Made by a program: the position numbers and the translations under genes
Origin: Eledone cirrhosa
Lineage: Eukaryota
NCBI GenBank assembly: GCA_964016885.1
Contig: OZ024742.1
Span: 306,962,001-307,026,000 of the forward strand
Length of the DNA stretch: 64,000 bases
Direction: 5' to 3'
Notes under the pieces: model-generated
The model's database searches: none
The model's input: the letters and a program-made list of their open reading frames with translations, nothing else
Told to the model about the DNA's origin: nothing
Shown here: one piece after another, positions 14,461 to 57,072 of the stretch
Numbering within the stretch: the stretch's first letter is position 1
Layout of the letters: each line of letters opens with the position of its first letter

Positions 14461-14483
14461 GTTATGCAGCCTTGGTGAGAATT

Positions 14484-30381: not shown

Positions 30382-30596
30382 GGTTTTTAATTTAGGCACA
30401 AGGCCAGCAATTGTGAGGGGAGAGGAAAGTCGATTAAATCGACCCAGTACGTAGCTGGTGCTTTATTTTATCGACGCCGTAAAAATGAAAGGCAAAATTA
30501 ACCTAGCAGGATTTGAACTCAGAACGTAATGGGCCGTAACTCTATACTACAAATCATAGTGTCCGATGCTCTACCGATACTGCCAATCCACCGCTC
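30382..30596 (-). mobile_element. Full-length tRNA-SINE between (AAT)n-like tracts
   Basis: Reverse complement: gcggtggattggcagtatcgg..gagttcaaatcc..ggccttgtgcctaaattaaaaacc-ttttattattatt; its 5' end abuts the (AAT)n at 30601-30640. Confidence 0.85.
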
Positions 30597-30605
30597 TCAA
30601 ATAAT

Positions 30606-30640
<35 letters not shown>

Positions 30641-30642
<2 letters not shown>

Positions 30643-32497
30643 CTTTCTTATTAACCACAAGGGTTTACATAAAGTAGACATTAAGGACAGTACAGGACAA
30701 TGCAGGACGGTACAAATGGACATTTCTGCGTGTAAAAAACAAAAACAGAGGATGTAACAAAAAATAACAATGAAAACTTCCCCAATACGGGGGAGACTTC
30801 CAAGGGACATTCGTGGAGAAAGCCCATTAAAAAGCCACAGTGACCCTGACTACCAAGGCAAGTGCCCTCTCCCAGTTTTCCACCTTTAATTTACAGACAC
30901 ATACTCAGAGTAGGCCCATTCACTCGGGCCATTCTTGCCTCTCTCACCCATCTTTCAACAAAATGCTTGGAAGAGAGCACTTCCCTCTCTACCCTGATTT
31001 TCCTTTTCAAGTGAAATTTGAATAGGTTAATCAGGGCATCACCGAAGGGGTAAGTGCTCGTCTTCAGCCCTTACAAACGTGTCCACCGTACTATCTCTTT
31101 CGCCATGGCCCCCAGACAGATAAAAACTGCCTGCCCTTCCCGGCTAAAGGAAGAGGGCGGAGCAATCATCACGATGGATTCAGCTGATAGCTGGATCCGC
31201 CCTACACGCGACAGCAGGTGTTCGACATAAACCCACAAGTCAGCAATGCTTAGGTGGGTTCCTTCACCACAAACGACACACTTAGGCCTTCTGCCCTCGA
31301 TGATTACGGTGAGGTGGCTGCCGTCAGTGGGGTATATTACCTCTGGGATCTCCTCAATGCTTTTTTGGTCCGCTTGGATCAGGAGCTCCATCCCAGATCC
31401 GGACCAGTTCTCCTGCTTTTCTTTCGCTATTTCGATTATCTTGGTGTTGGCCTCGATGCCGGCGAGGACGGCAGCCATTAGCCAGGGAATGTTGATGGCC
31501 GGTGGAACGTGGGTCACCCTAATCTTCACGAGTCTCTGGCCACAATAGCTTGGGACAAGTGTAAAGCCGTCACTTCTTAATGGGGCCATGGAGTGTTCTC
31601 TGTCCTCCTGTGGTGTTCCAAAGAACACCTCCACGGTTCCATATTTCGGCCCACGTCTGATGTGGGTTTTTTTTTGCCCACACATGTCCCAAAGCTTTGG
31701 ATTTGGGACTCGGATGCCCGTTCCACTCGGCGCAATTTTATGTTGATCGTCCGATAAGACACAGTGCATAGGCGCCGATGCTCCATTTTATTTGGTGGGG
31801 GGGGATGACCCTGTACCCATCTGTTTTTACCATTCTCTTGGCTTCATCTAATTCCTCCTGAGTTACCTGGATATTTTCGCATTTTTTGGCTGCCTTCACA
31901 AAGACACGATGTTATTCTCATTGTTGTTGTTGCTGTTGTTGTTATTGTTATTTTTGTTATTGTTATTTTTAGTTTCAGTTGTGGTGGTGGTGGTGGCTTC
32001 AGTGCTGTTCGGTGTGGAAGAGTCCATTCTTGGTGAATCCATTTCGATGTCACGAGATAATTTATTTTTTTCTTTTGTTTCTGTTGTCGCAGTGGTGGGG
32101 GTGGGGTGGCGGCTTCAACACCTGCAGTCATTGGTAATGGCGGGAAATGAATGTCTGCAGGAGACAAATTTAAATTATTGCTACTGCTTATATTTTTAGT
32201 GTTGGGAAACGTAGTAATATTTACAATAGTGGTGTCGGTCTGAGGTGTTAGTTTGTGAGGAAGGTGTGCCTGTGAGTCGTCCATGATTTTTCAAAAAAAT
32301 TTTTTGTTTGATAAATATAAAAGTTTAAATTTTGGGCTCAAGGCCCCAATCTTTTTGAGTGTCCTTTTCCGAAAGCAAATTTTGTGACCTTATAAACAGT
32401 TAACAACAAAGATTTTCCATAAATGGCAATTTTAAACAAACGAAAACAACAAACCTTTGCGGAGCTCACGATAATACGATTTCCTACGTAGGTCGCC
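30641..32497 (-). mobile_element. Tx1 element A: internally deleted (~4 kb) derivative of the element D family, both ends intact
   Basis: 5' end GGCGACCTACGT as in D and 3'UTR as in B/D; ORF1-ORF2 junction at 31249-31250; (AAT)n on both sides. Confidence 0.92.
31071..32284 (-). pseudogene. Disrupted ORF1 fused in frame to the ORF2 C-terminus
   Basis: ..GRRPKCVVCGEGTHL|SIADLWVYVEHLLSRVG..; frameshifts upstream and a premature stop at 31071. Confidence 0.8.
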
Positions 32498-32777
32498 AAT
32501 AATAATAATGATAATAATAATAATAATGATTTCTTTATTAACCACAAGGGTTTACATAAAGTAGACATTAAGGACAGTGCAGGACAATGCAGGACGGTAC
32601 AAATGGGCATTTCTGCGTGTAAAAAACAAAAACAGAGGATGTAACAAAAAATAACAATGAAAAATTCCCCAATAGGCGGCAGACTTCGGAGGGACATTTG
32701 TGGAGAAAGCCCAGTAAAAAGCCACAATGACCCTGACCACCAAGGCAAGTGCCCTCTCCCAGTTTTCCACCTTTAAT

Positions 32778-35442
32778 TTACAGATATATACTCAGAGTAG
32801 GCCCATTCACTCGGGCCATTCTTGCTTCTCTCACCCATCTTTCAACAAAATGCTGGGAAGAGAGCACTTCCCTCTCTACTCTGATTTTCCTTTTCAAATG
32901 AAATTTGAAAAAGTCAATCAGAGCATCACCGAAGAGGTAAGTGCTCGTCTTCAGCCCTTTCAAACGTGTCCACCATACTATCTCTTTCACCATGGCCACC
33001 AGGCAGATAAAAACTGCCTGCCCTTCCCGGCTAAAGGAGGAGGGCGGGGCAATCCTCACGATGAACTCGGATGATAGCCGGATCCGTCCTAAACGCGACA
33101 GCAGGTGTTCGACATAAACCCACAAGTCAGCAATTTTCGGACACTGGACGAGTGCGTGCAGGACGGTTTCGTCGCCCTGCGCGCATATCGGACATGCCCG
33201 GCTGACGGCACCTCCATGCCTATAGAGTTTATCCCGAACTGGCAAGGCTCCTCGGTAGCACTGCCAGGCCAGAGATTTCTGGAAGTTGTCCATAGGCCCT
33301 GGCCCGAAAGTTCTTCCGAAGAGATTGGCTAGTTGATTTTCGTCGACGCCTAGAGTTTCCCCAAGTACGTCGTCGCTCTTCCCCTCCACTAATCCTCTAT
33401 AGAACGCCGAGGTGGAGTTTCCACCGATCACATTGCCCGATTGGTCGAGGGCTGTGAGCGCCTGAAGACATTCCAGTCTCCAGGCGCTCCCTCTCGGTCT
33501 TCGCTTGACCCAGGACTGCAGCTCCGTCAAGGAAACGAGCTGGGGAAAAACGCGTCTAGCAAACGGCGGCCACACCTGATCACCGTCGAGGAAGAGGTGG
33601 AGATGTCGTAGCCTGAGCGCGTGCCTGCGCATCATCAGCCACGGCATGCCCAGCCCTCCACGTAGCGGGTGTTGACAACAGATGGACCGCCTGACCATCG
33701 GAGCACGTCCCTTCCACAAAAAGCGAAAGAGCAAACGCTCCAGCGCAGTCAGGCGAGGCTTAGGACAAGGTACGACGGTTAGGCGGTAGCAGATGACAGA
33801 CGCGATGTACGCGTTAGCCACCTCCGCTCGACCTTTCAGGGATAGCTTCCTCTCCGCCCATTTCTGGGTGAGAGAAGCCACCCTGCTCGTCACCTCGTCC
33901 CAGTTTTTATCCGTCTGGAGGTCCGGACCGAACCAGACCCCTAGCAATTTAACCGGTCCGTCCGTCCAGCGCCCGACGGCGCTGTTGGACGGCATGGACC
34001 TGCCTCTCCGGGTGCCGAGCTGCAGGCCCACTGACTTTTCCTGGTTGATCATTGCTCCTGTCACCGCTTCGTATTCTCTTAGTGTAGTGCCGATCGCCTC
34101 GATGTGTTTGGCGTTCGACACCACTACGGTGACATCGTCCGCATATGCTGACACGGATCTTCCGCATCCTAGTTCGCGCGGGACTCCCCTCAACGTCTCC
34201 AGTTTGTGCAGTAATGGCTCGAGAGTCAATACGTACAAGAGGGACGAGAGGGGACATCCTTGGCGGACCGAGCGCATGATGTTGAACGGTTCCGACAGGT
34301 GACCGTTCACTCTCACCACAGAGCAGATGTCGCTGTGCATGGCAGCGATCCAGCCTCTGAAGACGGGCCCAAAGCCAACCGCCCTCAGGACTGCCGCTAG
34401 GTAACGATGGTCGACCCTATCGAAAGCTTTCGACTGATCTAAATTGATTAAGGACCCACCCGTGCCAGGTTCCTTAGCTACCCTCTCAATGATGTATCGC
34501 ATGAGGTGGAGGTTGTCGTGGATGGATCTGTCGGGAATGGCGCATGTCTGCGCCTCTCCCACCAGACCACCAACGACAAGCGCCAACCTCTTTGCTAGCA
34601 CCTTGGCCAAAATCTTGAACTCTGTGTTTAGCAGAGTTATGGGCCGGAAATTGTCTATGTTATCCCCCTTGTTCGGATCCTTTCTCAGCAGTGCCACCGC
34701 TCCTCGGCTCACAGAACTGGGAATTCTCCCGTTCTGTTGCCAGTTGCAGTAGACGTCCGCCAAGAGGCCTCCGAACAAGTCTGGCATCTGTACGTAAAGT
34801 TCATAGGGCAGACCATCCAAACCAGGCGATTTACCCCTTGTGCAGCCAGTCATTGCCAGCCAGTCATTGCCTCCCAGTCCACATTGGCACATTCGGGAAA
34901 TCCAATCGGTACCTGTCAGACAGTTCAAAACGCCTGAGCAGGTTGGTGAGGCTCTTGCACCCTCCACCCCTATCCGCTAATCCCACACAGTCCCAGCGTG
35001 CATCTAAGATCCCGTTCCAGTCGCCCACTAACACTAAAGAGCGGGACGTTCCAAGAAAGGTCTCCAGACGCCGGAAGAAATCAGGCCGCCCTGCTCCTGT
35101 CGGGGCATAGACGGCCACTAGCCTGAAAGCTTGCCCGTCTCCGCTGGTCACGTCCAGCACCACCAGCTTACCCTCTGGGTCCAGGAAGATGACCCGTATG
35201 GCGAGATCCAAACCTCTCCGAAAAAGCACAGCAACTCCTCCACCCGATCCAGGACGGCTGGGAGATGCGTACACATCGTAGCCGCCGAAGATCGGTGCGA
35301 AGGCTCGTGCTTCGGAGATTCTGGTCTCGCTGATGGCCACTACATCTATGTTTAGTGACCTGAGGTCGTTGAGCAGGTGACCCTGCTTCCATGACGACCC
35401 CAAGCCACGCGCATTTATGCTGCCTATTCTGAGTGAGGTCAT
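32778..35442 (-). pseudogene. Tx1 ORF2 (APE endonuclease, RT, CCHC-like finger) with an internal deletion at ~34860
   Basis: SINARGL..SET..GDWN; FRPITLLN..DQSKAFDRV..RQGCPLS..AYADD; CPICAQGDETVLHALVQC. Confidence 0.92.
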
Positions 35443-35477
35443 GTTTAAAATAGAGTGGAAAAGATGGGAAAGACCAC

Positions 35478-37571
35478 TTACCGTACTTTTGGTAGAGGAG
35501 GGATGGTTTTTACATCCCTTTTCACTTGATCGTCTGGTGAAGGGACCGTTGAATCGTCCCTTCGGCTGGTCGTCGGCTCTTCTAAGAGAATGTCTGAATA
35601 TACTCTTCGATTGATGGTTCCTCCTAGGTCCCTGAAATCACCAACTGCGTTGGGGAATTTCGTTTTAATGTTTGTGTATTGTTTCTGTGCTATTTTTAGG
35701 AGTCTTATGTTAGTTGGCGTTTTGATTGGTGCTGGTATTATGTAGTCCTGTTGTGAAATGTCTGTGTGTTCAATTATGTAAGTCATTAGTTTCTTGTTGT
35801 GTGTGTTTATTGCCGTGCATTTGTTTTTCTGGGGGTGGGGTGTGGTTCTGCTATTTTCTTGTCGTTGTTGCTGGGTGTGTGTGTTTTGTTGTTGTGTTTG
35901 CGATGTTGGTGCTTGTGGTGGTGGTGTTGAAGGTGTTGTTGGCGGTGGGGTTGTCGCCGGTGGTGATGGTGGTGCTAGTGTGGGTGGTGATGGTGTTGGT
36001 GGTGTTGCTTCTGTGGGTCTCTTTGCAGTAGACTTTACCCTTTTCTCATTTCTTTCCTCCCTTTTCAAAGGCGACGATGCGCTGCTTCTGCGTTTGTGCC
36101 TTCTTACGACCTTTTGCCATCTCTCTCCCACCTCACACTCCATGTCTGATTCTGTGAGGTCGGGGAGGGGTACCAGCTCCACTCTTTCACTTGTTGTTGT
36201 TGGTGATGTTTGCACTGGAGTCTCTGTTGCAGCTGCATTTGGTATTGCTGTTGTTGTTGTTAATATTTCCACTGCTGCTGCTGTTTTTGATTTCCGTGGC
36301 GTGGGTATGGGTGCCACGGACCTAGCGTTCCTGGTTGCCGCTTGTCCTGTTGCTGGTAGCCGTGGAGCCGGTTTCAGAAGGAGGGGGGGTTCTCCTTTCT
36401 CAGGGTCTTCTCGTTGCAGAAGGCCCTGAGGTGAGTCTTCGATCCACAGCGAAAGCATTTCGGGCGTTTTCCCTCAACACTTATGGGCAGTTGAGTGCCG
36501 TTATCGAAGTCTATCACATCCGGGATAGCTTCGATGCACTCCTGGTTGGTTTGGATTAGCATCTCAATGGAGGTGCCGACCCAATCTTCTCTTACTTTTT
36601 TCTGTACTTGCAGTACAGTTGTTTTGTCCTCGATTCCGACGAGGACAGACGCGGCCAGCCAAGAAGGGGCCATCCCGGGGGGGGACGTGGGTCAGTTTGA
36701 CCCTCACAATTTTTTGCCCGCAGTAGGAGGGCACCAACACCATTTCCTCGCTCCTTAGGGTCACTACGGATTGGGCCTTTGCCTCCTGGGATGTGGCAAA
36801 AAGTACGTCTACGGTGGCATATTTTTTGCCTCGAGTGATGTGCGTTTTCCGCTGCCACACAGACCCCAAGGCTTTTTGTATTTGAGCCTCTGTGGCTCTT
36901 TCCACCCTACGGGATTTTGTACTTACTGTACGGTACGTGACCGTACAGTGCTGTTGGGTTTCGAAAACTTTTTCCGCTGCCTTGCAGATTGCTCGGTGTC
37001 CAGTCTTTGTCACCATCTTCTTCGCTTCCTCTAATTCCTCATTTGTTATGAGGATTGTTTCCAAGTTTTTCGCAATACCTGCAAATGAGATTGGTTTTTC
37101 TTTGCTGCTGTTGTTGTTGTCGTCAGATCTGCTGTTACTTTTGTTGTTGCTGCAGGTACTACGACTACTGCCTCCGCCGCTGTTGCTGTGGTTGTTGTTG
37201 GTGTTGCTGCTGCTAATGCTGTTGTTGTTTATGCTGCTGGTGATGCTGTTGCGGCTGCTACTGTTGTTTTCATTGTCACTGTTGCTGTTGTTATTACGGC
37301 TGCTACTGCTATTATTCCTGACGTCAGACGAATGAACTGGGTTTTCGTATTTCCCGCACACCTGTTTCGTCGCTGTCTTCGTCGTCGTGGAGAAACCTTG
37401 CACGCTTTGCACGAGACTTTTCTTTTCTTTCGTCGCTTGCGAAGGGAGGGAGAGAGACACATTTAAATAAGGGAGGGAGAGAGACAATCTTCTCTCTGCT
37501 GTAGTGCTGATTGAGGAAGAAGAAGACGGAATGAGTAGGAGTGACCTATGAAATTTCTTTTTCGTAGCCAT
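35478..37571 (-). pseudogene. Tx1 ORF1 type B (N/S-rich N-terminus, RRM-like core, CCHC knuckle), frameshifted
   Basis: CFRCGSKTHLRAFC knuckle; spread over ORFs 36564-37571, 36374-36673 and 35478-36458. Confidence 0.85.
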
Positions 37572-37811
37572 GTTGTTTTTTTTTTGTTTAAAATAAATAT
37601 TGGGTACAAAACCCCAATAAGCAGTTATTTAACCCCGAAGGGCCAAATAACGGGCAGAAAGACCCCTCTCACGAGGAGGAGGGTGTTTTTGTCTACAAGT
37701 TCGTTAAAGTTTTAAACAATTTACAATTGTCATAGTGTTCAAAATTTACAATACCTTACAGAGCCGAGCCTCCGTCAACCATAGCATTCAATAATAATAA
37801 TAATAATAATA

Positions 37812-39327
37812 ACGTGATAAGAGAACTTGATCAAGAAAAAACTTACAAATATCTAGGTGTTTGTGAAGGAGACGGAATCAAGCACTCGACAATGAGGGAA
37901 AGGATAAGGAAGGAATGTTACCGCAGAGTAAGAGCAATCTTAAGAACGGAATTGAATGCAAGGAATAGGATCGATGCCATAAACACGCTTGCCATACCAG
38001 TAGTAACCTACAGTTACAATGTCATCAACTGGTCAAGCACAGAGATCCGTAGGCTCGATACAAAAATTCGAAAATTCTTAACCATGCACAGAATGCATCA
38101 CCCTAAGGCAGATATAGATAGAATATATCTCCCTAGGAAAGAAGGAGGACGTGGGTTAATCCAGTTAGACATTGCGTTGAAAACTGCAACAATTGGATTA
38201 TCTACATATCTAAGGGAATCACATGATTGGATGATCAAGCTCGTTTTGAAACACGAAAGCATCAAAAGATCATATTCCATTACAAAAGATGCACAAAGAT
38301 ACAGTAATGGACTACAAATTTCAGAAGTCCCATTTACTGCTGAAATGGAAAACACAGAAAAAGCAAAGCAGGTAAAAGTAACTGCAAAGAAAGAACTGCT
38401 ACAGAAACTGGCTAAGAAATGGCAAGAAAAGCCTCTGTATGGAAAATACCCAGAGCGAGCTAACAATCCTGATGTTGACAAAACTTTAACCCATCAGTGG
38501 TTGGCATCCTCTGGACTGAAATCGGAGACCGAAGGACTGATTATATCGGCACAAGATCAGTGTCTGCCAACAAAAAATTACCAAGCCAACATAATAAAAA
38601 ATGGGTGCAGCCCATTATGCCGTGTATGCAAAAAACAACCAGAGACCATTGACCATATAATTTCAATGTGCAGTCCTATAGCTCCAACCGAAGACCTAAA
38701 CAGGTATGACAGAGCTGCACAATACATACATTGGATAATGTGTAAGCATTTTGACCTGCCCCATCAAAAGAATTGGTGGGAGCATCAACCACCTCCCATA
38801 CTTGAAAAAGATCACATCTCAATCTTGTGGAAGTTTAGCATCCAAACAGACCGAAAAATAGATGCAAATAGACCTGATATAATATTGAAGGACTTTCAAA
38901 AGAGGGTATGCCTGCTAATTGATATGTCTGTTCCAATAGACAAGAATGTATCTATAAAAACATTTGAAAAATTGAGCAAGTATAAGGATCTGGAGATAGA
39001 AATTGGAAAAATGTGGAAATTGAGAACTAAAACAATACCAGTGGTTGTAGGCGCTCTGGGAATGATACCTAAGGGGTCTAATGATTACTTATCGCAAATC
39101 CCAGGAAAACCGCGTATAGGAGAAATACAAAAGATACTACTAATGGGAACTGCCCATATAATAAGGAAGATTCTGTCAATATAAGTACATCACAAGTCTA
39201 AACACTAAAGATGCATGTGTGAATATGTATGTTCTTTCTTGAACATGGCGGACCTTGTTGTCTCTTGAGGTCACTGGTTGTGACTTGGTGATAACTCGTA
39301 TGAACATAAAGCAAGATAAATGCAACT

Positions 39328-39329
<2 letters not shown>
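37812..39329 (+). mobile_element. R4/Dong-like element C, 5'-truncated, with (AAT)n tail at 39330-39414
   Basis: Starts directly after (AAT)n; RT thumb + CCHC + RLE; short 3'UTR. Confidence 0.92.
37814..39184 (+). CDS. Partial RT C-terminus, zinc finger and restriction-like endonuclease (open frame, 5' truncated)
   Basis: YKYLG..LPRKEGGRGL..CRVCKKQPETIDHIISMC..NRPDIIL..LIDMSVP..KLSKYKDL..PVVVGALG. Confidence 0.88.
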   Translation: MIRELDQEKTYKYLGVCEGDGIKHSTMRERIRKECYRRVRAILRTELNARNRIDAINTLAIPVVTYSYNVINWSSTEIRRLDTKIRKFLTMHRMHHPKADIDRIYLPRKEGGRGLIQLDIALKTATIGLSTYLRESHDWMIKLVLKHESIKRSYSITKDAQRYSNGLQISEVPFTAEMENTEKAKQVKVTAKKELLQKLAKKWQEKPLYGKYPERANNPDVDKTLTHQWLASSGLKSETEGLIISAQDQCLPTKNYQANIIKNGCSPLCRVCKKQPETIDHIISMCSPIAPTEDLNRYDRAAQYIHWIMCKHFDLPHQKNWWEHQPPPILEKDHISILWKFSIQTDRKIDANRPDIILKDFQKRVCLLIDMSVPIDKNVSIKTFEKLSKYKDLEIEIGKMWKLRTKTIPVVVGALGMIPKGSNDYLSQIPGKPRIGEIQKILLMGTAHIIRKILSI

Positions 39330-39414
<85 letters not shown>

Positions 39415-39808
39415 GAAGGTCGAGAAATCGCTCCCGTAAGTTTTGATTTTTTAACATATTTAAATCAATTGTGAAATAACAATTCTTAGTACAAATGTTG
39501 CATAAAACATCCAGCTTGAGTCCCAAAAAATTCGGATCCACAATATATTGTTATATCGCTCAAATATTCCATTTTGTATTATACATTTTATATTCAAAAA
39601 GAAAATGGTTATAAATGGAAGAAAACCCCCTCTGTCTACACTATATAGAACAGCCAAATAACAGCAATTTCACCAACATCAGAAACTAGATACACCACCT
39701 ACCCCATCACCTCTCTGTGTACACTAAACACAACAGCCCGATAACGACAATTTCACCACCACCACCACCAATCTCAGCATAATAATAATAATTACTATTA
39801 CTATTGCC

Positions 39809-41150
39809 TCAAGTTTTAGTTTTAACAAAATGTTTAATTCCAATATTATGGGTAAATGTCAACACATATACGCGACTAACGTTAATTTCACTAAAGATAA
39901 TTCCACCACCAATACCACCACCACTACCACGATGAAAACTCTGGCCAAGTCAAATTTAAATTTCTACTCCAACTTCAACACCATCACTACAGTAATACGA
40001 CCACATCACCACCACCGCTGCCTCACTATCGCTACCGCCGCTATTCTCTCCCACTACCTCCTGCTAGTTGCTGCTAGCACAGCACCGCCACCGCCGCCGC
40101 TGCCTCAATATCACTACCGCCGCTATTCTCTCCCGCTGCCCCCTGCTACATTGTAGAATTCCCACTAAAATAGGAAAACATCAAAATATATAAATAGACT
40201 GAATTGATGACCTGGTCAAAATCAAAAAAAAAAAAAAAAAAATCAAAATCAAGTTTTAGTTTTAACAAAATGTTTAATTCCAATATTATGGGTAAATGTC
40301 AACACATACGCGACTAACGATAATTTCACTAAAGATAATTCCACCACCAATACCACCACCACTACCACGATGAAAACTCTGGCCAAGTCAAATTCAAATT
40401 TCTACTCCAACTTCAACACCATCACTACAGTAATACGACCACATCACCACCACCGCTGCCTCACTATCGCTACCGCCGCTATTCTCTCCCACTACCTCCT
40501 GCTAGTTGCTGCTAGCACAGCACCGCCACCGCCGCCGCTGCCTCAATATCACTACCGCCGCTATTCTCTCCCGCTGCCCCCTGCTACATTGTAGAATTCT
40601 CACTAAAATAGGAAAACATCAAAATATATAAATAGACTGAATTGAAGACCCGGTCAAAATAAAAAAAAACAATAATCAAAATCAAGTTTTAGTTTTAACA
40701 AAATGTTTAATTTCAATATTATGGGTAAATGTCAACACATACGCGACTAACGATAATTTCACTAAAGATAATTTCACCACCAATACCACCACCAATATCA
40801 CCACCACTACCACGATGAAAACTCTGGTCAAGTCGACTCAAATTTCTACTCCAACTTCAACACCATCACTACAGTAATACGACCACATCACCACCACCGC
40901 TGCCTCACTATCGCTACCGCCGCTATTCTCTCCCACTACCTCCTGCTAGTTGCTGCTAGCACAGCACCGCCACCACCACCGCCGCCGCTGCCTCAATATC
41001 ACTACCGCCGCTATTCTCTCCCGCTGCCCCCTGCTACATTGTAGAATTCCCACTAAAAGAGGAAAACATCAAAATATATAAATAGACTGAATTGAAGACC
41101 CGGTCAAAATAAAAAAAAATAAAAAAAAAAATAAAAAAAATAAAAATCAA
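39809..41150 (+). repeat. Three near-identical ~435-bp tandem units, each ending in an A-rich tract
   Basis: tcaagttttagttttaacaaaatg at 39809, 40249 and 40682. Confidence 0.93.
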
Positions 41151-41324
41151 AGCAGCACAGCAACAACGAAAAACGTAAAGGAAATAAAAATGAAGAGAAA
41201 AACAAACGGACGGACAGAGAAGGGAAGGGAAAAACTAAGTCAGACATTCAAACACTACATTACAATGAAACTTATGCTTATTCATTTTGGGGGTTTTTTC
41301 TGCCTGTTTGTTTGTTTGTTTGGG

Positions 41325-44943: not shown

Positions 44944-44949
44944 AATAAC

Positions 44950-45001
<52 letters not shown>

Positions 45002-45244
45002 TTTTCTTTATTAACCACAAGGGTTTACATAAAGTAGACATTAAGGACAGTACAGGACAATACAGGACGGTACAAATGGGCATTTCTGCGTGTAAAAAAA
45101 ACAGAGGATGAAATAAAATAACAAAGAAAAATTCCCCAATAGGGGGGAGACTTCCGAGGGACATTTGTGGAGAAAGCCCATTAAAAGACCACAGTGGCCC
45201 TGACCACCAGGGCAAGTGCCCTCTCCCAGTTTTCCACCTTTAAT

Positions 45245-48200
45245 TTACAGACACATACTCAGAGAAGGCCCATTCATTCGGGCCATACTTGCTTCTCTCA
45301 CCCATCTTTCAACAAAATGCTGGGAAGAGAGCACTTCCCTCTCTACCCTGATTTTCCTTTTCAGATGAAATTTGAAAAAGTTAATCAGGGCATCACCGAA
45401 GAGGTAAGTGCTCGTCTTCAGCCCTTTCAAACGTGTCCACCATACTATCTCTTTCGCCATGGCCACCAGACAGATAAAAACTGCGTGCCCTTCCCGGCTA
45501 AAGGAAGAGGGCGGGGCAATCCTCACGATGGACTCAGCTGATAGCTGGATCCGTCCTACACGTGACAGCAGGTGTTCGACATAAACCAACAAGTCAGCAA
45601 TGCTCGGACACTGGACGAGTGCGTGCAGGACGGTTTCGTCGCCCTGTGCGCATCTCGGACATGCCCGGCTGACGGCACCTCCATGCCTGTAAAGTTTATC
45701 CCGAACTGGCAAAGCACCCCGGTAGCACTGCCAGGCCAGGGATTTCTGGAAGTTGTCCATAGGCCCCGGCCCGAAAGTCCTTCCGAAGAGATTGGCTAGT
45801 TGATTTTCGTCGACGCCTAGAGTTTCTCCAAGTACGTCGTCGCTCTTCCCCTCCACTAATCCCCTATAGAACGCCAAGGTGGAGTTTCCACCGATCACAT
45901 TGCCCGATTGGTCGAGGGCTGTGAGCGCCTGAAGACATTCCAGTCTCCAAGGGCTCCCTCTCGGTCTTCGCTTGACCCAGGACTGCAGCTCCGTCAAGGA
46001 AACGAGCTGGGGAAAAACGCGTCTAGCAAACGGCGACCACACCTGATCACCGTCGAGGAAGAGGTGGAGATGTCGTAGCCTGAGCGCGTGTCTGCGCATC
46101 ATCAGCCACGGCATGCCCAGCCCACCATGTAGCGGGTGTTGACAGCAGATGGACCGCCTGACCATCGGAGCGCGTCCCTTCCACAAGAAGCGAAAGAGAA
46201 AACGCTCCAGCGCAGTCAGGCGGGGCTTAGGACAAGGTACGACGGTCAGGCGGTAGTAGATGACGGACGCGATGTACGCGTTAGCCACCTCCGCTCGACC
46301 TTTCAGGGATAGCTTCCTCTCGGCCCATTTCTGGGTGAGAGAAGCCACCCTGCTCGTCACCTCGTCCCAGTTTTTGTCCGTCTGGAGGTCTGGACCGAAC
46401 CAGACCCCTAGCAATTTAACCGGTCCGTCCGTCCAGCGCCTGACGACGCTGTTGGACGGCATGGACCTGCCTCTCCAGGTGCCGAGCTGCAGGCCCACTG
46501 ACTTTTCCTGGTTGATCATTGCTCCTGTCACCGCTTCGTATTCTCTTAGTGTAGTGCCGATCGCCTCGATGTGTTTGGCGTTCGACACCACTACGGTGAC
46601 ATCGTCGGCATATGCTGACACGGATCCTCCGTATCCTAGTTCGCGCGGGACCCCCCTCAACGTCTCCAGTTTGTGCAGTAATGGCTCGAGAGTCAATACG
46701 TACAATAGGGACGAGAGGGACATCCTTGGCGGACCGAGCGCATGATGTGGAACGGTTCCGAAAGGTGACCGTTCACTCTCACTACAGAGCAGATGTCGCT
46801 GTGCATGGCAGCGATCCAGCCTCTGAAGACGGGCCCAAAGCCAGCCGCCCTCAGGACTGCCGCTAGGTAACGATGGTCGACCCTATCGAAGGCTTTCGAT
46901 TGATCTAAGTTGATCAAAGACCCACCCGTGCCAGGTTCCCTAGCTACCCTCTCTACGATGTATTGCATGAGGTGGAGGTTGTCGTGAATGGATCTGTCGG
47001 GAATGGCGCATGTCTGTGCCTCTCCCACCAGACCATCAACGACAAGCGCCAACCTCTTTGCTAGCACCTTGGCCAAAATCTTGAACTCTGTGTTTAGCAG
47101 AGTTATGGGCCTAAAATTATCTATGTTATCCCCCTTGTTCGGATCCTTTCTCAGCAGCGCCACTGCTCCTCGGCTCACAGAGCTGGGAATTCTCCCGTTC
47201 TGTTGCCAGTTGCAGTAGACGTCCGCCAAGAGGCCTCCGAACAAGTTTGGCATTTGTACGTAAAGTTCATAGGGCAGACCATCCAAACCAGGCGATTTAC
47301 CCCTTGTGCAACTAGTCATTGCATCCCGTACTTCAGCGGTTGTTATCGGCTTTTCGCAACACTCCGCCTCAGTGGCCGAAAGCCGCGGCAGTCCGTCGAG
47401 GTAGACACTAAAGTCCATCTCTCGATCCGGCCCGCCACTGCCCCCGAACAGTTGAGCGAAGTGTCGCTGAAAAGCTTCACACATTTGCCCGGGATCGAGT
47501 AGCATGCGCCCGTCGTGGTCCACCAAAGACCGGATCGTGGCTTTGTTGCCACGACGCGCCTCCGCCACTCGGGCCCATTGAACGGCTTTCGTCCCCTCGT
47601 GTCTGAGAGCACGCACCCTAGCTCTGACAACGCAGCCTTCGTGCTTTGCATTGAAGAATTGGTCAAGGGCCAATTTCGCCGCAAGTACGTCGGTCGCGAT
47701 GCCTTTGCTAAGCGCCTCATCTAATTTTCTAACTAATTCTCCCTCTGCTCTATTTTTCTCTATTGCTAAAGTCTTACTAAACCTAATGGACTGTATTCTA
47801 ATTGCTCTTTTCAGAGCAAACCACCACTTGTTGTTGACGATGGCCCCCGTCAACGCCCGCTTAACTAGTTCGCTAATCCGGTCTCTGTAGGCCTTGCGCG
47901 CTGGTAAGGACGCGTTTAGCTTCCAGTAGCCGGGTCCTCGTCTATAAAGCCTATCTAAGTCAAGCACACAGATCACGAATTTGTGGTCCGTGTAACTGAC
48001 TATCTTGAATTGTGGACAGCCTATGCTAGACCTATCTATTTCCCTACAAAATACTCTATCTATATATGATCTGGATGACCCTATGCGATTTGTCCAAGTC
48101 CACATTGGTACATTCGGAAAATCCATTCGGTACCTGTCAGACAGTTCAAAACGTCTGAGCAGGTTGGTGAGACTCTTGCACCCTCCTTCCCTATCCACTA

Positions 48201-48663
48201 ATCCCACACAATCCCAGCCTGCATCTAAGATCCCGTTCCAGTCGCCCACTGACACTAAAGAGCGGGACGTTCCAAGAAAGGTCTCCAGACGCCGGAAGAA
48301 ATCAGGCCGCCCTGCTCCTGTCGGAGCATAGACGGCCACTAACCTGAAAGCTTGCCCGTCTCCGCTGGTCACGTCCAGCACCACCAACTTACTTTCTGGG
48401 TCCAGGAAGACGGACCGTATGGCAAGATCCAAACCTCTCCGAAAAAGCACAGCAACTCCTCCCCCCGATCCCGGACGGCTGGGAGATGCGTACACATCGT
48501 AGCCGCCGAAGATCGGTGCGAAAGCCTGTGCTTCGGAGATTCTGGTCTCGCTGATGGCCACTACATCTATGTTTAGTGACCTGAGGTCGTTGAGCAGGTG
48601 GCCCTGCTTCCATGACGACCCCAAGCCACGCGCATTTATGCTGCCTATTCTGAGTGAGGTCAT
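45245..48663 (-). pseudogene. Tx1 ORF2 APE-RT with a single 1-nt frameshift in a G run at ~46718
   Basis: Complete APE (GDWN, YIDRVF, TDHK), PGYWKLN, RT motifs, CPRC..H..C. Confidence 0.93.
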
Positions 48664-48697
48664 GTTGAAAAGGAGTGGAAAAGATGGGAAAGACCAC

Positions 48698-50664
48698 TTA
48701 CTTTACTTCTCGTAGGGGAAGGACGGTTTTTCCATCCTTTTCACTGCTTGTGGCCTCCTCAGGAAGGATGTCCTTATAAATCTTCTTGGAGAGTGCTTGT
48801 CGGAAGTCTCCGATGTCTTTGGGGAATTTTTGTTTTAGTGTCATGTGCGTTTTCTGTGTGATGCGAGTGATTTGTATGTGTGGTGGTGGTGTGAATTTTG
48901 GGGTTGTTGTGTAGTTTTTTTTCTGTGATGCTGGTGTTGTGTTGGATGTAGTGTAATAATTGCTTGTTGTTCAAATTTAATGCTGTGTAGTGTGTATCGT
49001 TTTGGTTGTTTTGTTTTGTTTGCGTTTGTTGTGGGTTTGTTTCTGTTTCGCATTTTGGTGACTTTTGTGGTGTAGGTGATGGTGGTGTTGGGGTTAATGA
49101 TGGTGATGGTGTTGGTGTTTGGGTTGATGGGGTTGGTGATGCTGGTGTGGATGGTGGCATATCTGTCCTAACTTTTTTGTTTCTTAATTTATTTGTTTCC
49201 CTCTGTATTTTGTTTTTGGAGGGGGAAGGAAGAGAATTTTTTCTTTTTTGGTTTCTTTTTTTTTTCCGGATATCGTTTCCCACTCCTCGTCGTCACAATC
49301 TGACTCCAGTTGTGATAGGCCGGGGAGTGGAAAATCTTCCACAGCCGTTAGTTTTGGTTGTGGCGTGGTGGATGGTGTAGGCGCTGGTGCTAGTTCTGAA
49401 GCGTTGGGTGGTGGTGGTGTTGGTTTTGCTACTGTTGCTGGGGTTGTTGCTGTTATAGTTGCTTCTATTGTTGCTGCTACAGTTGTTGCTGCCATCTCTG
49501 CTACTGGTGGTGTTGATGGTTGTGTCACTGGGGTGGGTAGGAGAGGTGGCCTCAACCTTTTAGCCTGAGGGCAGAAAGCCCTTAGGTGGGTTCCTTCACC
49601 ACAAACGACACACCTAGGTCTTCTGCCCTCGACAATTACCGTGAGGTGGCTGCCGTCAGTGAGGTCTATTACCTCTGGGATCTCCTCAATGCTTTTTTGG
49701 TCCGCTTGGATCAGGAGCTCCATCCCAGATCCGGACCAGTTCTCCTGCTTTTCTTTTGCTATTGCTATTATTTTCGTGTTGGCTTCGATGCCGGCGAGGA
49801 CGGCCGCTATTAGCCAGGGAATTTCGATGGCCGGTGGAACGTGGGTCACCCTGATCTTTACGAGTCTCTGGCCACAATAGCTTGGGACGAGTGTGAAGTC
49901 GTCACTTCTTAATGGGGCCATGGAGTGTTCTCTAGCCTCCTCTGGTGTTTCAAAGAACACGTCCACGGTTCCATACTTTTGCCCACATCTGATGTGGGTT
50001 TTCCTTGCCCACACATGTCCCAAAGCTTTTTGGATTTGGGACTCGGATGCCCGTTCCACTCGGCGCGATTTTACATTTATTGTTCTATACGACACGGTGC
50101 ATAGGCGCCGATGCTCCATTTTATTAGGTGGGGGGTGAGGCTGACTCTGTACCCATCTTTCTTTACCATTTGTTTGGCATTTTCTAAATCCTCCTGAGTT
50201 ACCGTAAATGCTTCGAACTGTTTTGCTACTCTGGCGAAACTGAGGGTCGGTTTTATAATGTCATTGTTGTTGTTGTTGCTATCGTTATTTGTGTTAATAT
50301 TAATTTTAGTTTCAGTTGTGGTGGTGGTGACGTCAGTCGTCTTTGGTGGGGAAGAGTCCATTTTGCTTGATTTCATTTCGACATCACGAGTTAATTTATT
50401 TTTTTCTTCTTTTGTTTCTGTTGTCGCGGTGGTGGTGTGGGTGGTGGTTGTCGCGGTGGTGGTGGTGGTGGAGGCTTTAACACCTGCAGTCATTGGTAAT
50501 GGCGGGAAATGAATGTCTGCCTGAGACAAATTTAAAATATTGCTACTGCTTATATTTTTTTTTGTGTTGGCAAACGTAGTAACATTTACAATGGTGGTGT
50601 CGGTGTGAGGTGTTAATTTGTGAGGAAGGCTTTCAGCTGCTTGTTGCAGAGGTGAATTAGCCAT
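48698..50664 (-). pseudogene. Tx1 ORF1 type D, frameshifted
   Basis: MANSPLQQ.., core with CVVCGEGTHLRAFC, P/T-rich tail. Confidence 0.85.
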
Positions 50665-50889
50665 TTTTTTCAAAGAAATTTTTTGATAATAATAAAAGTT
50701 TAAATTTTGGGCACAAGGCCCCAATCTTTTTGGGTGTCCTTTTCGGAAAACAATGTATGTGCGCTTATAAACAGTTAACAATAAAATTTTCCATAAATGA
50801 CAATTTTTAACAAACGGAAATAACAAACCTTTGCGGAGCTCACGATGATACGATTTACTACGTAGGTCGCCAATAATAATAATAATAAT

Positions 50890-50929
50890 GATTTCATTTA
50901 TTAGCCACAAGGGCCGACATGTAGAGGAC
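50890..50929 (-). mobile_element. 40-bp abortive Tx1 (family E) 3' end between (AAT)n tracts
   Basis: gatttcatttattagccacaagggccgacatgtag is repeated at 50951. Confidence 0.8.
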
Positions 50930-51227
50930 AATAATAATAATAATAATAATGATTTCATTTATTAGCCACAAGGGCCGACATGTAGGGGATAATACAAAGA
51001 CAGGGACAGTGGGGGTTTACAATAAGGTCGAGTAAAAGTGCACAATGGCAAGACTAATTTAACAATGAAAATATAAAAATATAAAATAAACTATGCAAAA
51101 CATAACAAAATAAATTCCCCGATAGGGGGTGGACGACCCTGGGGTGATTCGGGTACCCCACCAATCCTGAACCACCCTGCGCTTCTAGGGCACCCAGGAG
51201 AGCACCCCTCTCCTCAAGTTAGCCAGC

Positions 51228-54200
51228 CTATAGGCGCATGGTCAGAGTAGGCCCATTCACACGAGCCATTCTCGCCACATTCACCCACCTTTTAGCAAAT
51301 GTACTGGGGGGGGGGGGGCAGCACTTCTCTCTCCACCCTCACCCTCCTTTCCAGGTGAAACTTGAAGAAGTTGATGAGGGATTGGCCGAAGAGAAAAGTG
51401 TCTGTCTTTAGTCCTTTCAACCTGGTCCACCATATAATCTCTTTCGCAACTGCCACCAGACAGAGGAAAATGTCCTGCTCTTCCTGACCTAAGGAAGGTG
51501 GCGGCTCGATCTTCACTATGGACTCGGCCGATAACCGGATTCGTTCCACACGCGACAGTAGCTGTTCGACATAACTCCACAAGTCAGTAATGCACGGACA
51601 TTGCACAAGTGCGTGCAGAACGGTTTCGTCGTTCTGTGCGCATCTTGGGCAGGTCCGTCTGACAGCACTTCCGTGCCTGTAGAGTTTATCCCGAACCGGC
51701 AGTTCCCCCCGGTAGCACTGCCAAGCGAGGGATTTCTGGAAATTGTCCATCGTCCCCGGCTCAAAAGTCCTCCGGTACAGACTGGTCAGTTCGACTTCGT
51801 CGAGGCCCAAAGCTTCTCCGAGTGCGTCATCGCACTTGCCCACCACTAATCCTCTATAGAACTCGAGAGTGGAAGTTCCACTGATCGCATTGCCCGCTTG
51901 GTAGAGGGCAGTGCGTGCCTGGCAACATTCCAGGTGCCAGTCACCCAGTCTCGGTCTCTTCTTGACCCAGGACTGCAGCTCAGTCAAAGAAATGAGCTGC
52001 GGAAAGGCCCGTCTGATAAACGGCGACCACACCTGTTCACCATTGAGGCAGAATATCTGGAGATGTCGCAACCTCAACGCATGTCTGCGCATCATTAGCC
52101 ACGGCATGCCCAGCCCTCCGCGTAGAGGGTGCTGGCAGCAGATGGACCGCCTCACCAATGGAACTTGTCCCCTCCACAAGAATTTGAAGAGGAGCCGTTC
52201 CAACTTGACGAGGCGCGGACGGGGGCAAGGCACGACGGTTAGGCGGTAATAGATGACGGACGCGATGTACGCATTCGCCACCTCCGCGCGACCTTTCAGT
52301 GATAGCTTCCTCCCAGCCCATTTTTAGGTGAGACTGGCGACTCTGCTCGTTACCTCGTCCCAATTCTTTTCCACCTGGAGGTCTGGTCCGAACGAAACCC
52401 CGAGCAACTTTACTGGTCCGTCCGTCCAGCGCCCCACGACGCTGTTGGACGGCATGGGCTTGCCTCTCAAGGTTCCGAGCTGCAAGCCCACCGACTTTTC
52501 CGGGTTAAGTTTGGCTCCTGTCAACCTTTCATATTCCTTCAATAAGGTGCCGACCACCTCGATTTCTGAGGTGTTCGACACCATCACGGTGATGTCGTCC
52601 GCATAAGCCGACACCGCCTTTCCACGTCCCGGTTCGAGCGGGATGCCCTGCAACAGCTCCAGCTTCCGCAGTAAAGGCTCGAGAGTCAATACGTACAGAA
52701 GGGAAGAGAGAGGGCACCCTTGACGGACCGATCGGGAGAGCCGAAATGGTTCCGAGAGATGGCCATTAACCTTGACCACCGAGCGTGTGCCGCTGTGCAT
52801 TGCAACGATCCAGCTTCTAAAGACAGGGCCGAAGCCAGCTGCTTTGAGGACAAACTCCAGATACCGATGGTCGACCCTATCGAATGCTTTCGATTGATCT
52901 AAATTGATCAGTGCCCCACCGAAGCCAGGTTTACACCCTACCCTCTCTATGATGTATCGCATGAGGTGGAGATTGTCGTGTATGGACCTGGCTAGGATTG
53001 CGCAAGTTTGCGCCTCCCCAACCAAATCCTCGACGACAAGCGCCAATCTCTTTGCTAACACCTTGGCCAAAATCTTAAACTCTGTGTTGAGCAGAGTTAT
53101 GGGCCTGAAGTTGTCTAATGTATCCCTCTTGTTCTCGTCTTTCCTTATCAGCGTCACCACTCCCCTGCTCACAGAACTGGGAATACTCCCATTCTGCTGC
53201 CAGTTACAGTAGAGTGCTTCGAGGAGGTCGGAGAACAAGTCTGGCATATTTACGTAAAGCTCGTAGGGCAGGCCATCCAAACTGGGTGACTTGCGCCTCA
53301 TGCAGCCGACAAGGGCGTCCTGAATTTCGGCTGAAGTAATCGGCCTTTCGCGGCGCTCAGCGTCGACCGTCGAGATGCGCGGCAAGCCGTCAAGGTAGGG
53401 ACTGAAATCCGCTACTCTCTCTGACTCGCCACTCTCCCCGAACAACCGAGCAAAGTGCTGGCGAAAGGCCTCACACATCCGCTTAGAATCGCTTATCTCG
53501 TGTCTGTCTCGGTCCGCCAAAGACCGAATTGTGGTTTTATTACCACGCTGCGCTTCCGCCACGCGGGCCCATCGAACAGCTTTAGTTCCCTCGTTTCTCA
53601 GCGCACGCGCCTTAGCTCTGACAATGCAACCTTCGTGTTTGGAATTGAAGAAATGATCTAATGTCATTCTCGCCGCTAGCACGTCAGTTGCGATGCCACT
53701 ACAAATAGCCTCGTCTAACTTATCTACCAGCTCCCCCTCCTTTCTATTTTTCTCTAACGCTAGTTCTTTGCTGAACTCTATCGAAGTTACTCTAATCTCT
53801 CTTTTGAGAGCCCCCCCCCCCCACCATCTGTTGTTGATGATCCCCCCTGTCAACTTTTGCTTAACTAACTTATTGACTCGGTCCCTGTAAGCCTTACGTG
53901 CCGGAAATGACATGTTCAGCTTCCAGTAACCCGGTCCTAACCTACGCGTTTTATTTAGGTCGACCGTACAGATCACAAATTTGTGATCTGAATAGGCGAC
54001 CGTTTTAAAAAGCGGACAGCCCACACTATTTCTATCTATTTTCCTAATGAAGATTTTGTCTATATACGATCTAGATGACCCCATTCGGTTGGTCCATGTC
54101 CATACTGGCACATTGGGGAAGTCTAGTCGATACCTGTCAGACAGTTGGAACTGGCTGAGTAGGTGCTTGAGGCTTTTGCACCCCCCGCTCCTATCGGCTA

Positions 54201-54663
54201 CTCCCACACAATCCCAGCGTGCGTCTAAGATGCCATTCCAGTCCCCTGCTAACAGTAAAGGGCGAGACGTACCCAGAAAGGTCTCCAGGCGCCTAAATAA
54301 GTCAGGTCGTCCGGCCCCTGTAGGGGCGTAGACGGCCAGCAGTCTAAAGGCACCACCTTCGCTACTGCTCACATCCAAGACCACCAACTTACCGTCCGGG
54401 TCCCGGAAGATCGACCTTACCTCGAGATCCAGTCCTTTCCTAAACAGCACTGCCACCCCACCCCCCATTCCCGGCCTGCTAACAGATGCGAAGATCTGAT
54501 AGTCGTCGAAAATGGGGGCTAGTGCACGCGTGTCGGAAATTCTGGTCTCGCTTACGGCAATCACATCCATTTCCAGCGACCGGAGGTCGTTGAGCAGGCG
54601 ACCCTGCTTCCAGGGTGACCCCAGGCCGCGAACATTTAAACTTCCTACTCTTAATATGGCCAT
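51228..54663 (-). pseudogene. Tx1 ORF2 APE-RT with an in-frame stop at 52324 and a G-run frameshift at ~51310
   Basis: SLNVRGL..GDWN..SDHK..RQGCPLS..AYADD..CPRC. Confidence 0.93.
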
Positions 54664-54672
54664 ATTGGTAAG

Positions 54673-56643
54673 CTAAGAGAGAGAGAGGGAAGGTTTACTT
54701 ACCTCCCGGGTCTTGTGAAGGTCGGGTGGTTCGACCTCCATGGTTGGTGGGGTTTCTTTTGGGAACCCCTTTAAAAGTCTTGATGTGGGTTTCACATTCG
54801 GGTTTCCCACGTCTTGAGGAAAGCTCTCTCGAATTTCTTTGAAGGAATTGAGTGACATTCGGACCAGAAGCAAATCTTCTGGCACGCAAAATGTGCTCAT
54901 TTCAAAAATCTCCCCTCTGTTTGAATGTCCTCGCTTCGCGCTAAGAGGGCCATCAGTTTATCGTTGGCCCTTCTGACAAGCACGAAGTTTTTAACATTTT
55001 GTTGGTGTGGTTTTATTTGTTTTCGTTTTGGTGAAGGTGGTGGCGATGGTTTTGGTGGTGTTGTTTCGGGTATGTCTATGTTTGTTGTAGGTGTGGTGTC
55101 TGCAATTTCAGGTATTTGTGTGTTTATTTGTACTTGTGTTTGTTTAGGTTGTTTGCGTTTCGGGGATTGTGGAGGTGGTGTCGATGTTGCTGATGGTGCT
55201 GATGTTATTGGGGAAGGGTCTGCGTTAGTGGTGTCTGTATTTTTTGTTGTGTGTGTTTTTGTGTTTTGTTGGGGCTTTTTTTTTTTTGTGAGTTTTCTCT
55301 GTTTTTTTGCACTTTTGGGTTTTCCTTCATCTTCGGTGCTGGAAGACAAAGGGTCTGTGTCTGTGAGTGTCTCTGTGTCTGTGTGTGCGTTTATTTTTTT
55401 TTTTGTCTATGTATATAGTTGGGGGGGTAGGGGGAGTGGGAGAGCTTTCCTCGTTTTCTCCTTGGATTGGTTTTGGTGTTGGTGGTGATCCGGCTGCTTT
55501 TGATGTTGGTGTCCGTGTTTTTGTTGATGTTGTTTTTGGTGGTGGTGGTGGTGCAGCTTTCCGTGCTGACACTGGCGTTGGCAACAAAGGAGGTTTGCGA
55601 CCCCCTGCATTTTTGCGCTGAGGGCAGAAGGCTTGAAGATGCGTGGCTTCCCCGCAAACGAAGCAACGTGGCCTTCTTCCGTCAATCATTAGTTGGATTG
55701 TTGTCCCGTCCTGCAGGCGGGCAAAATCTGGGATGTTATTTATATCCTCCGGTTTCATTTGGAGAAGAATCTCCAAATCCATTCCGGACCAGTCTTCTCT
55801 CTCTGTCCTTTTGATGTCCAGGAGGGTGGTGTCTGTCCCCTCCTCGATTACGCATCCCAGCAGCCACCATATGTTCATTCCTGGTGGGATGCTGGGAATG
55901 CGTACCTTCACTGTCCTTTTACCCATATAGGACGGATGCATGATAATGCGTTCCGTTCTGCAGGGGATCACCGAGTGCTTAATAGCGAGGGCCTCGGATT
56001 TGAACAGTACCGAGATGGTACCGAACTGTTTGCCTCTTGCTTTGTACTCTATGTTACTTCCGATGTACTCCAAAGCAGCCTCTACCTCTGCTTGGCTCGC
56101 AAGTTCCACTTTTCGTGTCTGCACCGAAATACATCGAAAGAGCACCGTCCTCCTTTGCATGGCCGCTATTGCCTCGTCCGGGATGGTCAGGTTTTCCCAG
56201 GACTTCTCCCGTTTAATTAGCCTCCACGCTTTGGCCAACTGTTCGTCTTTATCGCTAATATCAATATCGATATTCAATAAGCGCTTTGTTTTTGCTGCTG
56301 CTGCTGCAGCAAATGTGGTGTTTCTGATGCTCTTATTGTTGTTGTTGTCATTCTTGCTGTTGCCACCGCCATCCTTGTTTACATTGAAGCTGTCGGTGTT
56401 TTTGTCGTTATTGCTCTGAGTTGTTGTTGTGGTGGTGGTGGCGGTGGTGGTGATGTCGTTTTCAGATGATACTGCTGCTCTGGCAGAAGGTTGTGATGGT
56501 AGCTTTTTAGTTTTGCCTTCACATTCAGCAGAGTGGATGACAGGCATGACTGTAGCCGTCGTAGTCGTGGTGAAATCTGCAGTGGCTGCCTTTAAACTTT
56601 TGACCTGAACGTTGTTTACCGTTTCACGGTCGAAAATTTCCAT
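54673..56643 (-). pseudogene. Tx1 ORF1 type E, frameshifted
   Basis: CFVCGEATHLQAFC knuckle; core homologous to the B and D ORF1. Confidence 0.85.
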
Positions 56644-57072
56644 AATTTTCTTTTGGTGGGGAATCGATTTTTTTTCGAAGATTTTAAAAATAAATCTGAA
56701 TATTCGAGCTTAAAGCCCGAATATTGAGAGGTATCCCTCTCTTTAAATCAAGATGTGTACCTTAAGTTTCGTTAATGACAAGAAAATACAAAAAAAAGAC
56801 ACTTTAAAACAGCTTAAAGCTACGAACCTTTTCCCCGCAGACTTGTCTGTCTTCACACATGTGCGGCCATAATAATAATAATAATAAAAGCACACAAATA
56901 AACATACATATCTCTACTTTCTTTATTTCAATAGAAAGTCTGAATTCTCACACCCCAGCGAACCAGCCATATTCACTGAACCAGAACAATTCTCCCATCC
57001 CATTTCTCTTGACCATTATCTTTTGTTTGGCACAAAATTCTCTAAAAGGCTACAAAATAAAATCCCAGATAC

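Follow-up and report, generated by a model that had tools for sequence, protein, structure and literature searches.

How do retrotransposons with unrelated endonucleases come to share one simple repeat, each in an orientation of its own? The question is raised by a 64,000-nucleotide stretch of the Eledone cirrhosa genome (contig OZ024742.1, positions 306,962,001 to 307,026,000, forward strand), called the window below. Within it, bp 30355-56886 form a gap-free array composed of a short interspersed element (SINE), four Tx1-type elements with an apurinic/apyrimidinic endonuclease (APE), a 40-bp stub, and two Dong/R4-type elements with a restriction-like endonuclease (RLE). An (AAT)n tract is found at every junction. 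The APE elements and the SINE lie on the minus strand and the RLE elements on the plus strand. The answer we propose, with good confidence, is as follows. Throughout the genome, (AAT)n tracts host at least three families of Tx1-type APE elements and two of Dong/R4-type RLE elements, each kind in its own fixed orientation, opposite to that of the other. Each likely inserts by target-primed reverse transcription once its endonuclease has nicked its own strand of the repeat; the tract is regenerated at each insertion, and the SINE is a likely partner of the Tx1-type elements.

An earlier interpretation, made from the letters alone (the sequence-only reading), had placed eight (AAT)n tracts in an array spanning 30601-56887. 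All eight are present at those positions, and all read AAT on the plus strand. Its tracts and elements stand; its left limit does not, as the SINE, which it missed, extends the array to 30355. It also put both R4/Dong insertions on the plus strand, which is borne out by Pfam and translation, and five Tx1 insertions on the minus strand. The latter orientation is correct but the count is not, since the fifth is a 40-bp stub of the 3′ end of element G. No tract of at least five units occurs in the remaining 37 kb of the window, nor in 100 dinucleotide shuffles of the array region.

Insertion at (AAT)n across the genome

The 3.0-Gb genome (1796 contigs) was searched with 200-base, repeat-free element ends. 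For each query the best 30 of 40 scored matches were used, the query's own locus was dropped, and an end was scored as repeat-associated if at least three repeat units in the predicted polarity lay within 45 bases. The 5′ ends of Tx1-type elements D and B are at (ATT)n in 29/29 copies each, and those of G in 26/29. For the RLE element F, 27/29 of the 5′ ends and 29/29 of the 3′ ends are at the repeat. Only 0.385% of random positions satisfy the same criterion, and no sampled D, B, G or F end showed the opposite polarity alone. The Tx1 copies were sampled via their 5′ ends, so that these figures describe copies retaining that end rather than 5′-truncated ones. An RNA tail cannot template a 5′ end; thus, contact of the 5′ ends with the repeat is not explained by a templated tail. 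The sequence-only reading had taken the repeat to be the target, and genome-wide the 5′ flanks are indeed non-random and enriched in (AAT)n in all four families tested. The junctions are also phased: with the window's own locus included, the sequence is TATT in 30/30 cases for D and 30/30 for B. The target of the Tx1-type elements is (ATT)n and not the (TC)n or (TTC)n of Kibi and Koshi. A few tracts grade into (TTC)n further out. Recurring unassigned sequences also flank tracts and may be further AAT-associated families (L016, L045, L148, L149; L127, L147; L017, L129, L130, L143, L146).

Polarity was tallied on both flanks of each tract of at least five units at 214 element-anchored loci, 286 distinct tracts in all; the counts are of ends, not events, and both ends of one element may be included. 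RLE elements lie on the AAT strand in 246 cases with 1 against, Tx1-type APE elements on the ATT strand in 176 with 0 against, and the SINE on the ATT strand in 49 with 0 against. The strictly opposite orientation read from the window alone thus holds across the genome. In 40 evenly spaced 10-kb stretches, 20 tracts were found, flanked by 3 RLE, 4 Tx1-type and 4 SINE sequences, every one of which obeys these orientations. Of this 400-kb sample, Tx1-type elements make up about 1.9%, RLE elements 0.3% and SINEs 1.0%.

Empty and filled versions of one site are provided by Z, a dispersed host repeat with an internal (AAT)n tract. Z is found empty twice in L251. In L211 a SINE and a full-length F-family element, both with tracts at their ends, lie between the same two flanks; in L421 the space between these flanks is taken up by four F-family copies, one full and three truncated, and every junction carries a tract. 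Among 30 Z copies, 14 are empty, 7 have a SINE and 1 an RLE element in the tract, and 8 are rearranged or unassigned. All 8 insertions in Z tracts follow the polarity rule. The 7 SINE insertions have several truncation points, yet perhaps not all are independent. That insertion splits the target and regenerates it, as the sequence-only reading had supposed, is borne out by these paralogous sites.

The array is not an isolated case. Across the tract from a full-length 5′ end, another long interspersed element (LINE) is found in 62/96 instances, compared with 7/40 for random tract flanks (Fisher p = 5e-7); the 96 anchored 5′ ends remain after 20/116 were dropped as duplicates or for having no tract of 5 units. 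Both clades occur together at 15/20 Tx1-anchored and 10/20 RLE-anchored loci, and at 0/40 random 10-kb loci. Insertions are thus clustered above the level of random tracts, which upholds the earlier idea of a self-seeding array.

Elements of the array

The features of the array are collected in the table below. No element in the window has all of its reading frames intact, owing to internal deletion (A, B), 5′ truncation (C) or frameshifts (D, F, G).

Table. Tracts and elements of the array, in window coordinates.
Feature	Position	Strand	Remark
Imperfect (AAT)n tract (ninth)	30355-30380	+	SINE 3′ tail; left end of array
SINE-like element, ~220 bp	30381-30599	-	
SINE 3′ hairpin GGC-CUUGU-GCC	30395-30405	-	common to Tx1-type 3′ ends
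(AAT)n tract 1	30600-30641	+	
Element A, Tx1-type	30642-32497	-	internally deleted
(AAT)n tract 2	32498-32527	+	
Element B, Tx1-type	32528-37789	-	
(AAT)n tract 3	37790-37810	+	B/C head-to-head junction
Element C, Dong/R4-type RLE	37811-39329	+	5′-truncated
(AAT)28 tract 4	39330-39413	+	
Element F, Dong/R4-type	39414-44943	+	near full-length
F 5′ untranslated region	39414-41445	+	
F open reading frame	41446-44866	+	two frameshifts; Myb-like N-terminus, RT, CCHC, RLE
(AAT)n tract 5	44944-45000	+	F/D tail-to-tail junction
Element D, Tx1-type	45001-50871	-	full-length
D 3′ hairpin AACC-CUUGU-GGUU	45013-45025	-	
(AAT)6 tract 6	50872-50889	+	
Stub of G 3′ end, 40 bp	50890-50929	-	
(AAT)7 tract 7	50930-50950	+	
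Element G, Tx1-type	50951-56868	-	full-length
(AAT)n tract 8	56869-56886	+	right end of array

Open reading frame (ORF) 2 pieces of B, D and G, with APE, reverse transcriptase (RT) and zinc-binding regions, are found on the minus strand by Pfam and translation, and DNA identity among the three is 76-95%. D has an ORF1 with an RRM-like domain and a CCHC knuckle and an ORF2 with APE, RT and zinc-binding regions, both frameshifted in the window copy; intact D-family ORF2s of 1139 residues with APE motifs are present in L235 and L237. G is ~76% identical to D over ORF2 and has an ORF2 frameshift near 52323. The ORF2 region of B is 94-95% identical to that of D, whereas its 5′ untranslated region (UTR) and ORF1 are unrelated to those of D, which suggests a modular exchange of 5′ halves; B also has an internal deletion of ~0.75 kb near 34860. 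In A, a 5′ part of 1.25 kb that resembles D (84%) meets a 3′ end of 0.6 kb that resembles B and D (93%); the join is near 31250. The D-family 5′ UTR (50688-50725, minus strand; also in A near 32340) holds a SINE-like 3′ end, that is, a GGGC-CUUGU-GCCC hairpin followed by ATTATT, as if this UTR were derived from a SINE-like element. A fourth Tx1-type 3′ end, with a GCC-CUUGU-GGC hairpin, is absent from the window and follows RLE tails in the same polarity in L032, L044 and L060.

Among solved structures, human L1 ORF2p is closest to D ORF2, and the catalytic positions of the APE align; the closest named relative of D ORF2 among the matches listed is an Argonauta hians protein (72% identical). 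An ORF1 with RNA-binding domains and a CCHC knuckle is a trait of the Tx1 clade. D ORF1 matches CCHC and ZCCHC3-type RNA-binding domain clusters in the atlas (0.90-0.93), and a C-x2-C-x4-H-x4-C motif is present in D and G ORF1. The clade references were proxies, namely metagenome relatives identified by U2 small nuclear RNA (snRNA) or 5S ribosomal RNA (rRNA) gene flanks (Rfam; 20/80 loci scanned). A 24-row APE+RT tree has a 19-row clade (99/95) that contains D and G, 5 U2-flanked and 2 5S-flanked metagenome elements, and two unnamed rows of uncertain clade. Two plant elements and three long vertebrate-type rows, presumed to be L1, fall outside it. A 76-row quick tree puts B, D, G and the Argonauta protein on a branch of their own, sister to relatives of 40-45% identity. 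By sequence, A, B, D and G are reckoned to be Tx1-type, D and G grouping with the target-specific Tx1 proxies apart from the L1-like rows. No (ATT)n tract was found in the 80 metagenome loci scanned, where relatives are mostly 24-32% identical. Pieces of U2 snRNA or 5S rRNA genes lie beside Tx1-like elements in metagenome contigs L292, L296, L300, L302 and L307, and L304 and L310, respectively. In L320, the contig of a distant APE element ends in (ATTG)9 (4174-4210), possibly a further microsatellite target.

On the plus strand, RT, CCHC and RLE-type pieces of C and F are recognized by Pfam and translation. The two are distinct families with 41% protein identity; family C was seen as tract flanks, and searches with the 3′ ends of C and D yielded no matches, probably because words that are very common are passed over. 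Intact family-F ORFs of 1141 residues (L225, L228) contain RVT_1 and no APE family, and the best solved relatives are R2 proteins (E 2e-29). A CCHC motif is followed by RPD...D...K, which we take to be a PD-(D/E)xK-type RLE signature. Residues 55-150 of F have Myb clusters among their atlas neighbours (0.75-0.85, a lead), and no N-terminal zinc-finger motif is seen in the F sequence. A Myb-like N-terminus without a zinc finger matches the R4/Dong description (PMC7998251). Domain order, Myb-like N-terminus and (TAA)n target would thus place C and F in the R4/Dong clade. No named Dong, R4 or Rex6 reference is among the 120 homologues listed.

The sequence-only reading had left the 5′ end of F uncertain; it is at 39414, directly after tract 4. 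Treatment of 39414-41300 as a spacer outside the element was rejected, as other copies share it as F 5′ UTR: the segment 39414-41445 precedes the same ORF in other copies, and at other loci in the genome an (AAT)n tract precedes its start. The window copy is short of about the first 24 bases. Within this UTR a 440-bp unit is present three times (39809-41137), its copy number seeming to vary among copies. Five other loci on contig C18 (L158, L173-L176) share the window's exact C-tail/F-head junction, with the F head again lacking its first bases (window 39330-39420). They may reflect segmental duplication or movement of a C-F composite.

Outside the array, the right flank, 56887-57800, is another high-copy repeat, the upstream part of which is missing here; its paralogues are preceded by (CA)n runs and not by the window's left flank. 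Old Tx1-like fragments at 14482-15149 and 22796-23330 (68-79% identity) have no tract at their matched ends. No Pfam family was detected in the 8 ORFs scanned outside the array, and an Rfam scan of the window returned nothing but repeat-driven miRNA noise.

The SINE and the CUUGU hairpin

The SINE is of high copy number (4280 first-look candidates, 40 of them scored). An invariant CCUUGUG anchors the alignment of its 3′ end with those of the Tx1-type elements. On either side of this motif are stems that differ yet pair: AACC/GGUU in D, GGCC/GGCU in G and GGC/GCC in the SINE. Over 11 chosen rows, 91% of the stem cells are paired and 3/4 of the pairs show double-sided change, a level of pairing reached by 0/500 shuffles and by no slid register. 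The SINE and the Tx1-type LINEs thus share 3′ sequence, hairpin and target polarity. SINEs and partner LINEs with shared 3′ ends are an established arrangement (PMC3747384). It is likely that the SINE borrows the Tx1-type ORF2 by way of the CUUGU hairpin, a partnership that these likenesses support rather than prove and that would explain the SINE's Tx1 polarity. A second SINE subfamily enters tracts readily. Among copies of the window's subfamily that lie outside tracts, 13/29 have target duplications of at least 10 nt, where shuffled pairs give 0.8.

A two-strand model, its rivals and its precedents

Target-primed reverse transcription begins with a nick in the strand complementary to the sense strand of the element, and cDNA synthesis is primed from that nick. 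Given the opposite polarities, the APE would then nick the strand that reads AAT, with an (AUU)n RNA end for priming, and the RLE the strand that reads ATT, with an (AAU)n end; the endonucleases themselves would set the repeat specificity. As insertion leaves a tract on both sides, each event adds target and arrays grow. The SINE would recruit the Tx1-type ORF2 by its 3′ CUUGU hairpin and so take on Tx1 polarity.

Several observations weigh against this account. The G 5′ junctions are looser than those of D and B (TTAT 12, TATT 7, other 11; n=30). One RLE end, in L229, is in the wrong orientation, though it looks like an RLE copy with an inverted 5′ part. The sampled loci are the best-scoring and hence the youngest copies, and the random sample of 20 tracts is small. 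As for the SINE, the hairpin is only four pairs long, the loop motif was the criterion for choosing its rows, and rows that are related do not count as independent; of the ATT-tailed LINEs in the genome, the partner screen covered the Tx1-type families; and the window's SINE subfamily is mostly outside tracts, with at least three ATT units upstream in 6/29.

The same strict polarity is predicted if base pairing, and not the endonuclease, sets targeting. Nicks would then fall loosely in A+T-rich or slipped DNA, only those 3′ ends that pair with an (AUU)n or (AAU)n tail would prime, and the RNA tail would set the polarity. Short primer pairing would also give SINE target duplications that often start with ATT, TTA or TAT, as 10 of the 13 do. 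Short ATT matches are everywhere, yet full-length LINE 5′ ends nearly always have at least three units upstream, and the junction phase is fixed for D and B. Moreover, Dong specificity has been attributed to the protein's Myb-like domain (PMC7998251, where it is argued rather than shown). We consider pairing-driven targeting unlikely.

Arrays might also grow at the DNA level. Local duplication does contribute: the G stub belongs to a 62-bp unit that is 96.8% identical to the neighbouring unit (duplication at 50872-50994), so that the stub may be an abortive insertion or a local duplicate, and two RLE fragments in L421 have an identical start position. The five C18 loci with the window's C/F junction point the same way. 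It is nevertheless very improbable that new insertions are few and that arrays arise mainly through duplication or recombination between tracts, be it by unequal crossing-over or by segmental duplication: the window's elements represent five families (C differs from F, and B, D and G from one another, to the extents given above), the RLE copies at tracts are 5′-truncated at many different points along the element, and neighbours vary between loci. Least credible of all is an assembly artefact in which repeats were joined at microsatellites. Four short-read contig sets were uninformative at the right boundary, where the flank is itself a high-copy repeat. Unlike at false joins, however, the same host repeat resumes beyond the insertion in L211 and L421, and the rules are obeyed by hundreds of tracts spread over many contigs.

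Insertion by two strand-specific nickases thus remains the preferred account. We lean, by a modest measure, towards a wider proposal as well: that octopods harbour an undescribed (ATT)n-specific Tx1 lineage, the APE of which is a strand-selective microsatellite nickase; that it shares its target with Dong in mirror polarity and, via the conserved 3′ CUUGU hairpin, is the engine of an abundant octopus SINE; and that this three-party system builds arrays of tens of kilobases from single AAT tracts. With two unrelated nucleases that naturally act on the same three-base repeat, and with intact ORFs, the encoding of strand choice and repeat specificity becomes testable. The proposal also supplies a candidate partner LINE for an abundant octopod SINE, SINEs being 11.6% of the Octopus vulgaris genome (PMC13282606), and offers a definite mechanism by which hotspots of retrotransposons could arise in octopod genomes. 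Dong-R4 and L1-Tx1 are active or expanded in octopuses (PMC13282606; PMC8967140), and in O. vulgaris Dong-R4 is the LINE group with the most recently active insertions (1129; PMC13282606).

Each ingredient has a precedent, which limits the surprise. Dong is stated to target (TAA)n in most insects, molluscs and cnidarians (PMC7998251; PMC3812793). Bombyx Dong, DongAg, snail DongBg and ostracod Dong1/2 are like C and F in having a single ORF with a Myb-like N-terminus, no N-terminal zinc finger, RT, CCHC and RLE (same sources). Unlike known Dong, the two families described here share their target with an APE lineage, and F has a 2-kb 5′ UTR with internal tandem repeats. Bombyx Dong has a 5′ hepatitis delta virus (HDV)-like ribozyme (PMC3774820); with E values of up to 10 admitted, Rfam detected none in the 5′ regions of F and C, although its models may miss such ribozymes. 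The known microsatellite targets of Tx1 elements are (TC)n for Kibi, (TTC)n for Koshi and (TTCC)n/(TTTC)n for crocodilian Tx1, and U2 snRNA and 5S rRNA genes are known Tx1 targets as well (PMC4494074). Like A, B, D and G, the microsatellite-specific elements have an APE-RT ORF2, a CCHC-bearing ORF1 and the microsatellite at both ends (PMC4494074). Compared by description rather than by sequence, the present elements differ from Kibi and Koshi in that (ATT)n is not pyrimidine-only, the host is an invertebrate, and the target is shared with an RLE clade. In crocodilians, a common target preference led to the inference that a target-specific Tx1 group mobilizes a SINE (SINEU and Tx1-Mar; PMC4494074); in the present case a microsatellite is the target, and the shared 3′ hairpin is a further ground for the link.

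Dong on (TAA)n, APE/RLE target sharing and opposite orientations in one repeat are thus already published, each separately. The AAT target of a Tx1-type element and its likely SINE partner appear to be new: neither an (ATT)n-specific Tx1 element nor Tx1/Dong co-targeting was found in the literature searched, a scope outside which Repbase and most subscription papers lie. The sequence-only reading was right about Dong and about Kibi and Koshi but understated the precedents for sharing. Keno (Tx1, APE) and Utopia (RLE) share one U2 snRNA gene site (PMC4640811), with identical 3′ flanks, the same orientation and a gene as target, whereas in the present system the two clades face opposite ways and every insertion regenerates the target. 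In Bombyx, SART and TRAS build arrays in a single telomeric repeat, which they enter in opposite orientations (PMC10088271). Both of these belong to the R1 clade and use a telomeric repeat; in the Eledone arrays, the nuclease folds are unrelated and the targets are dispersed microsatellites.

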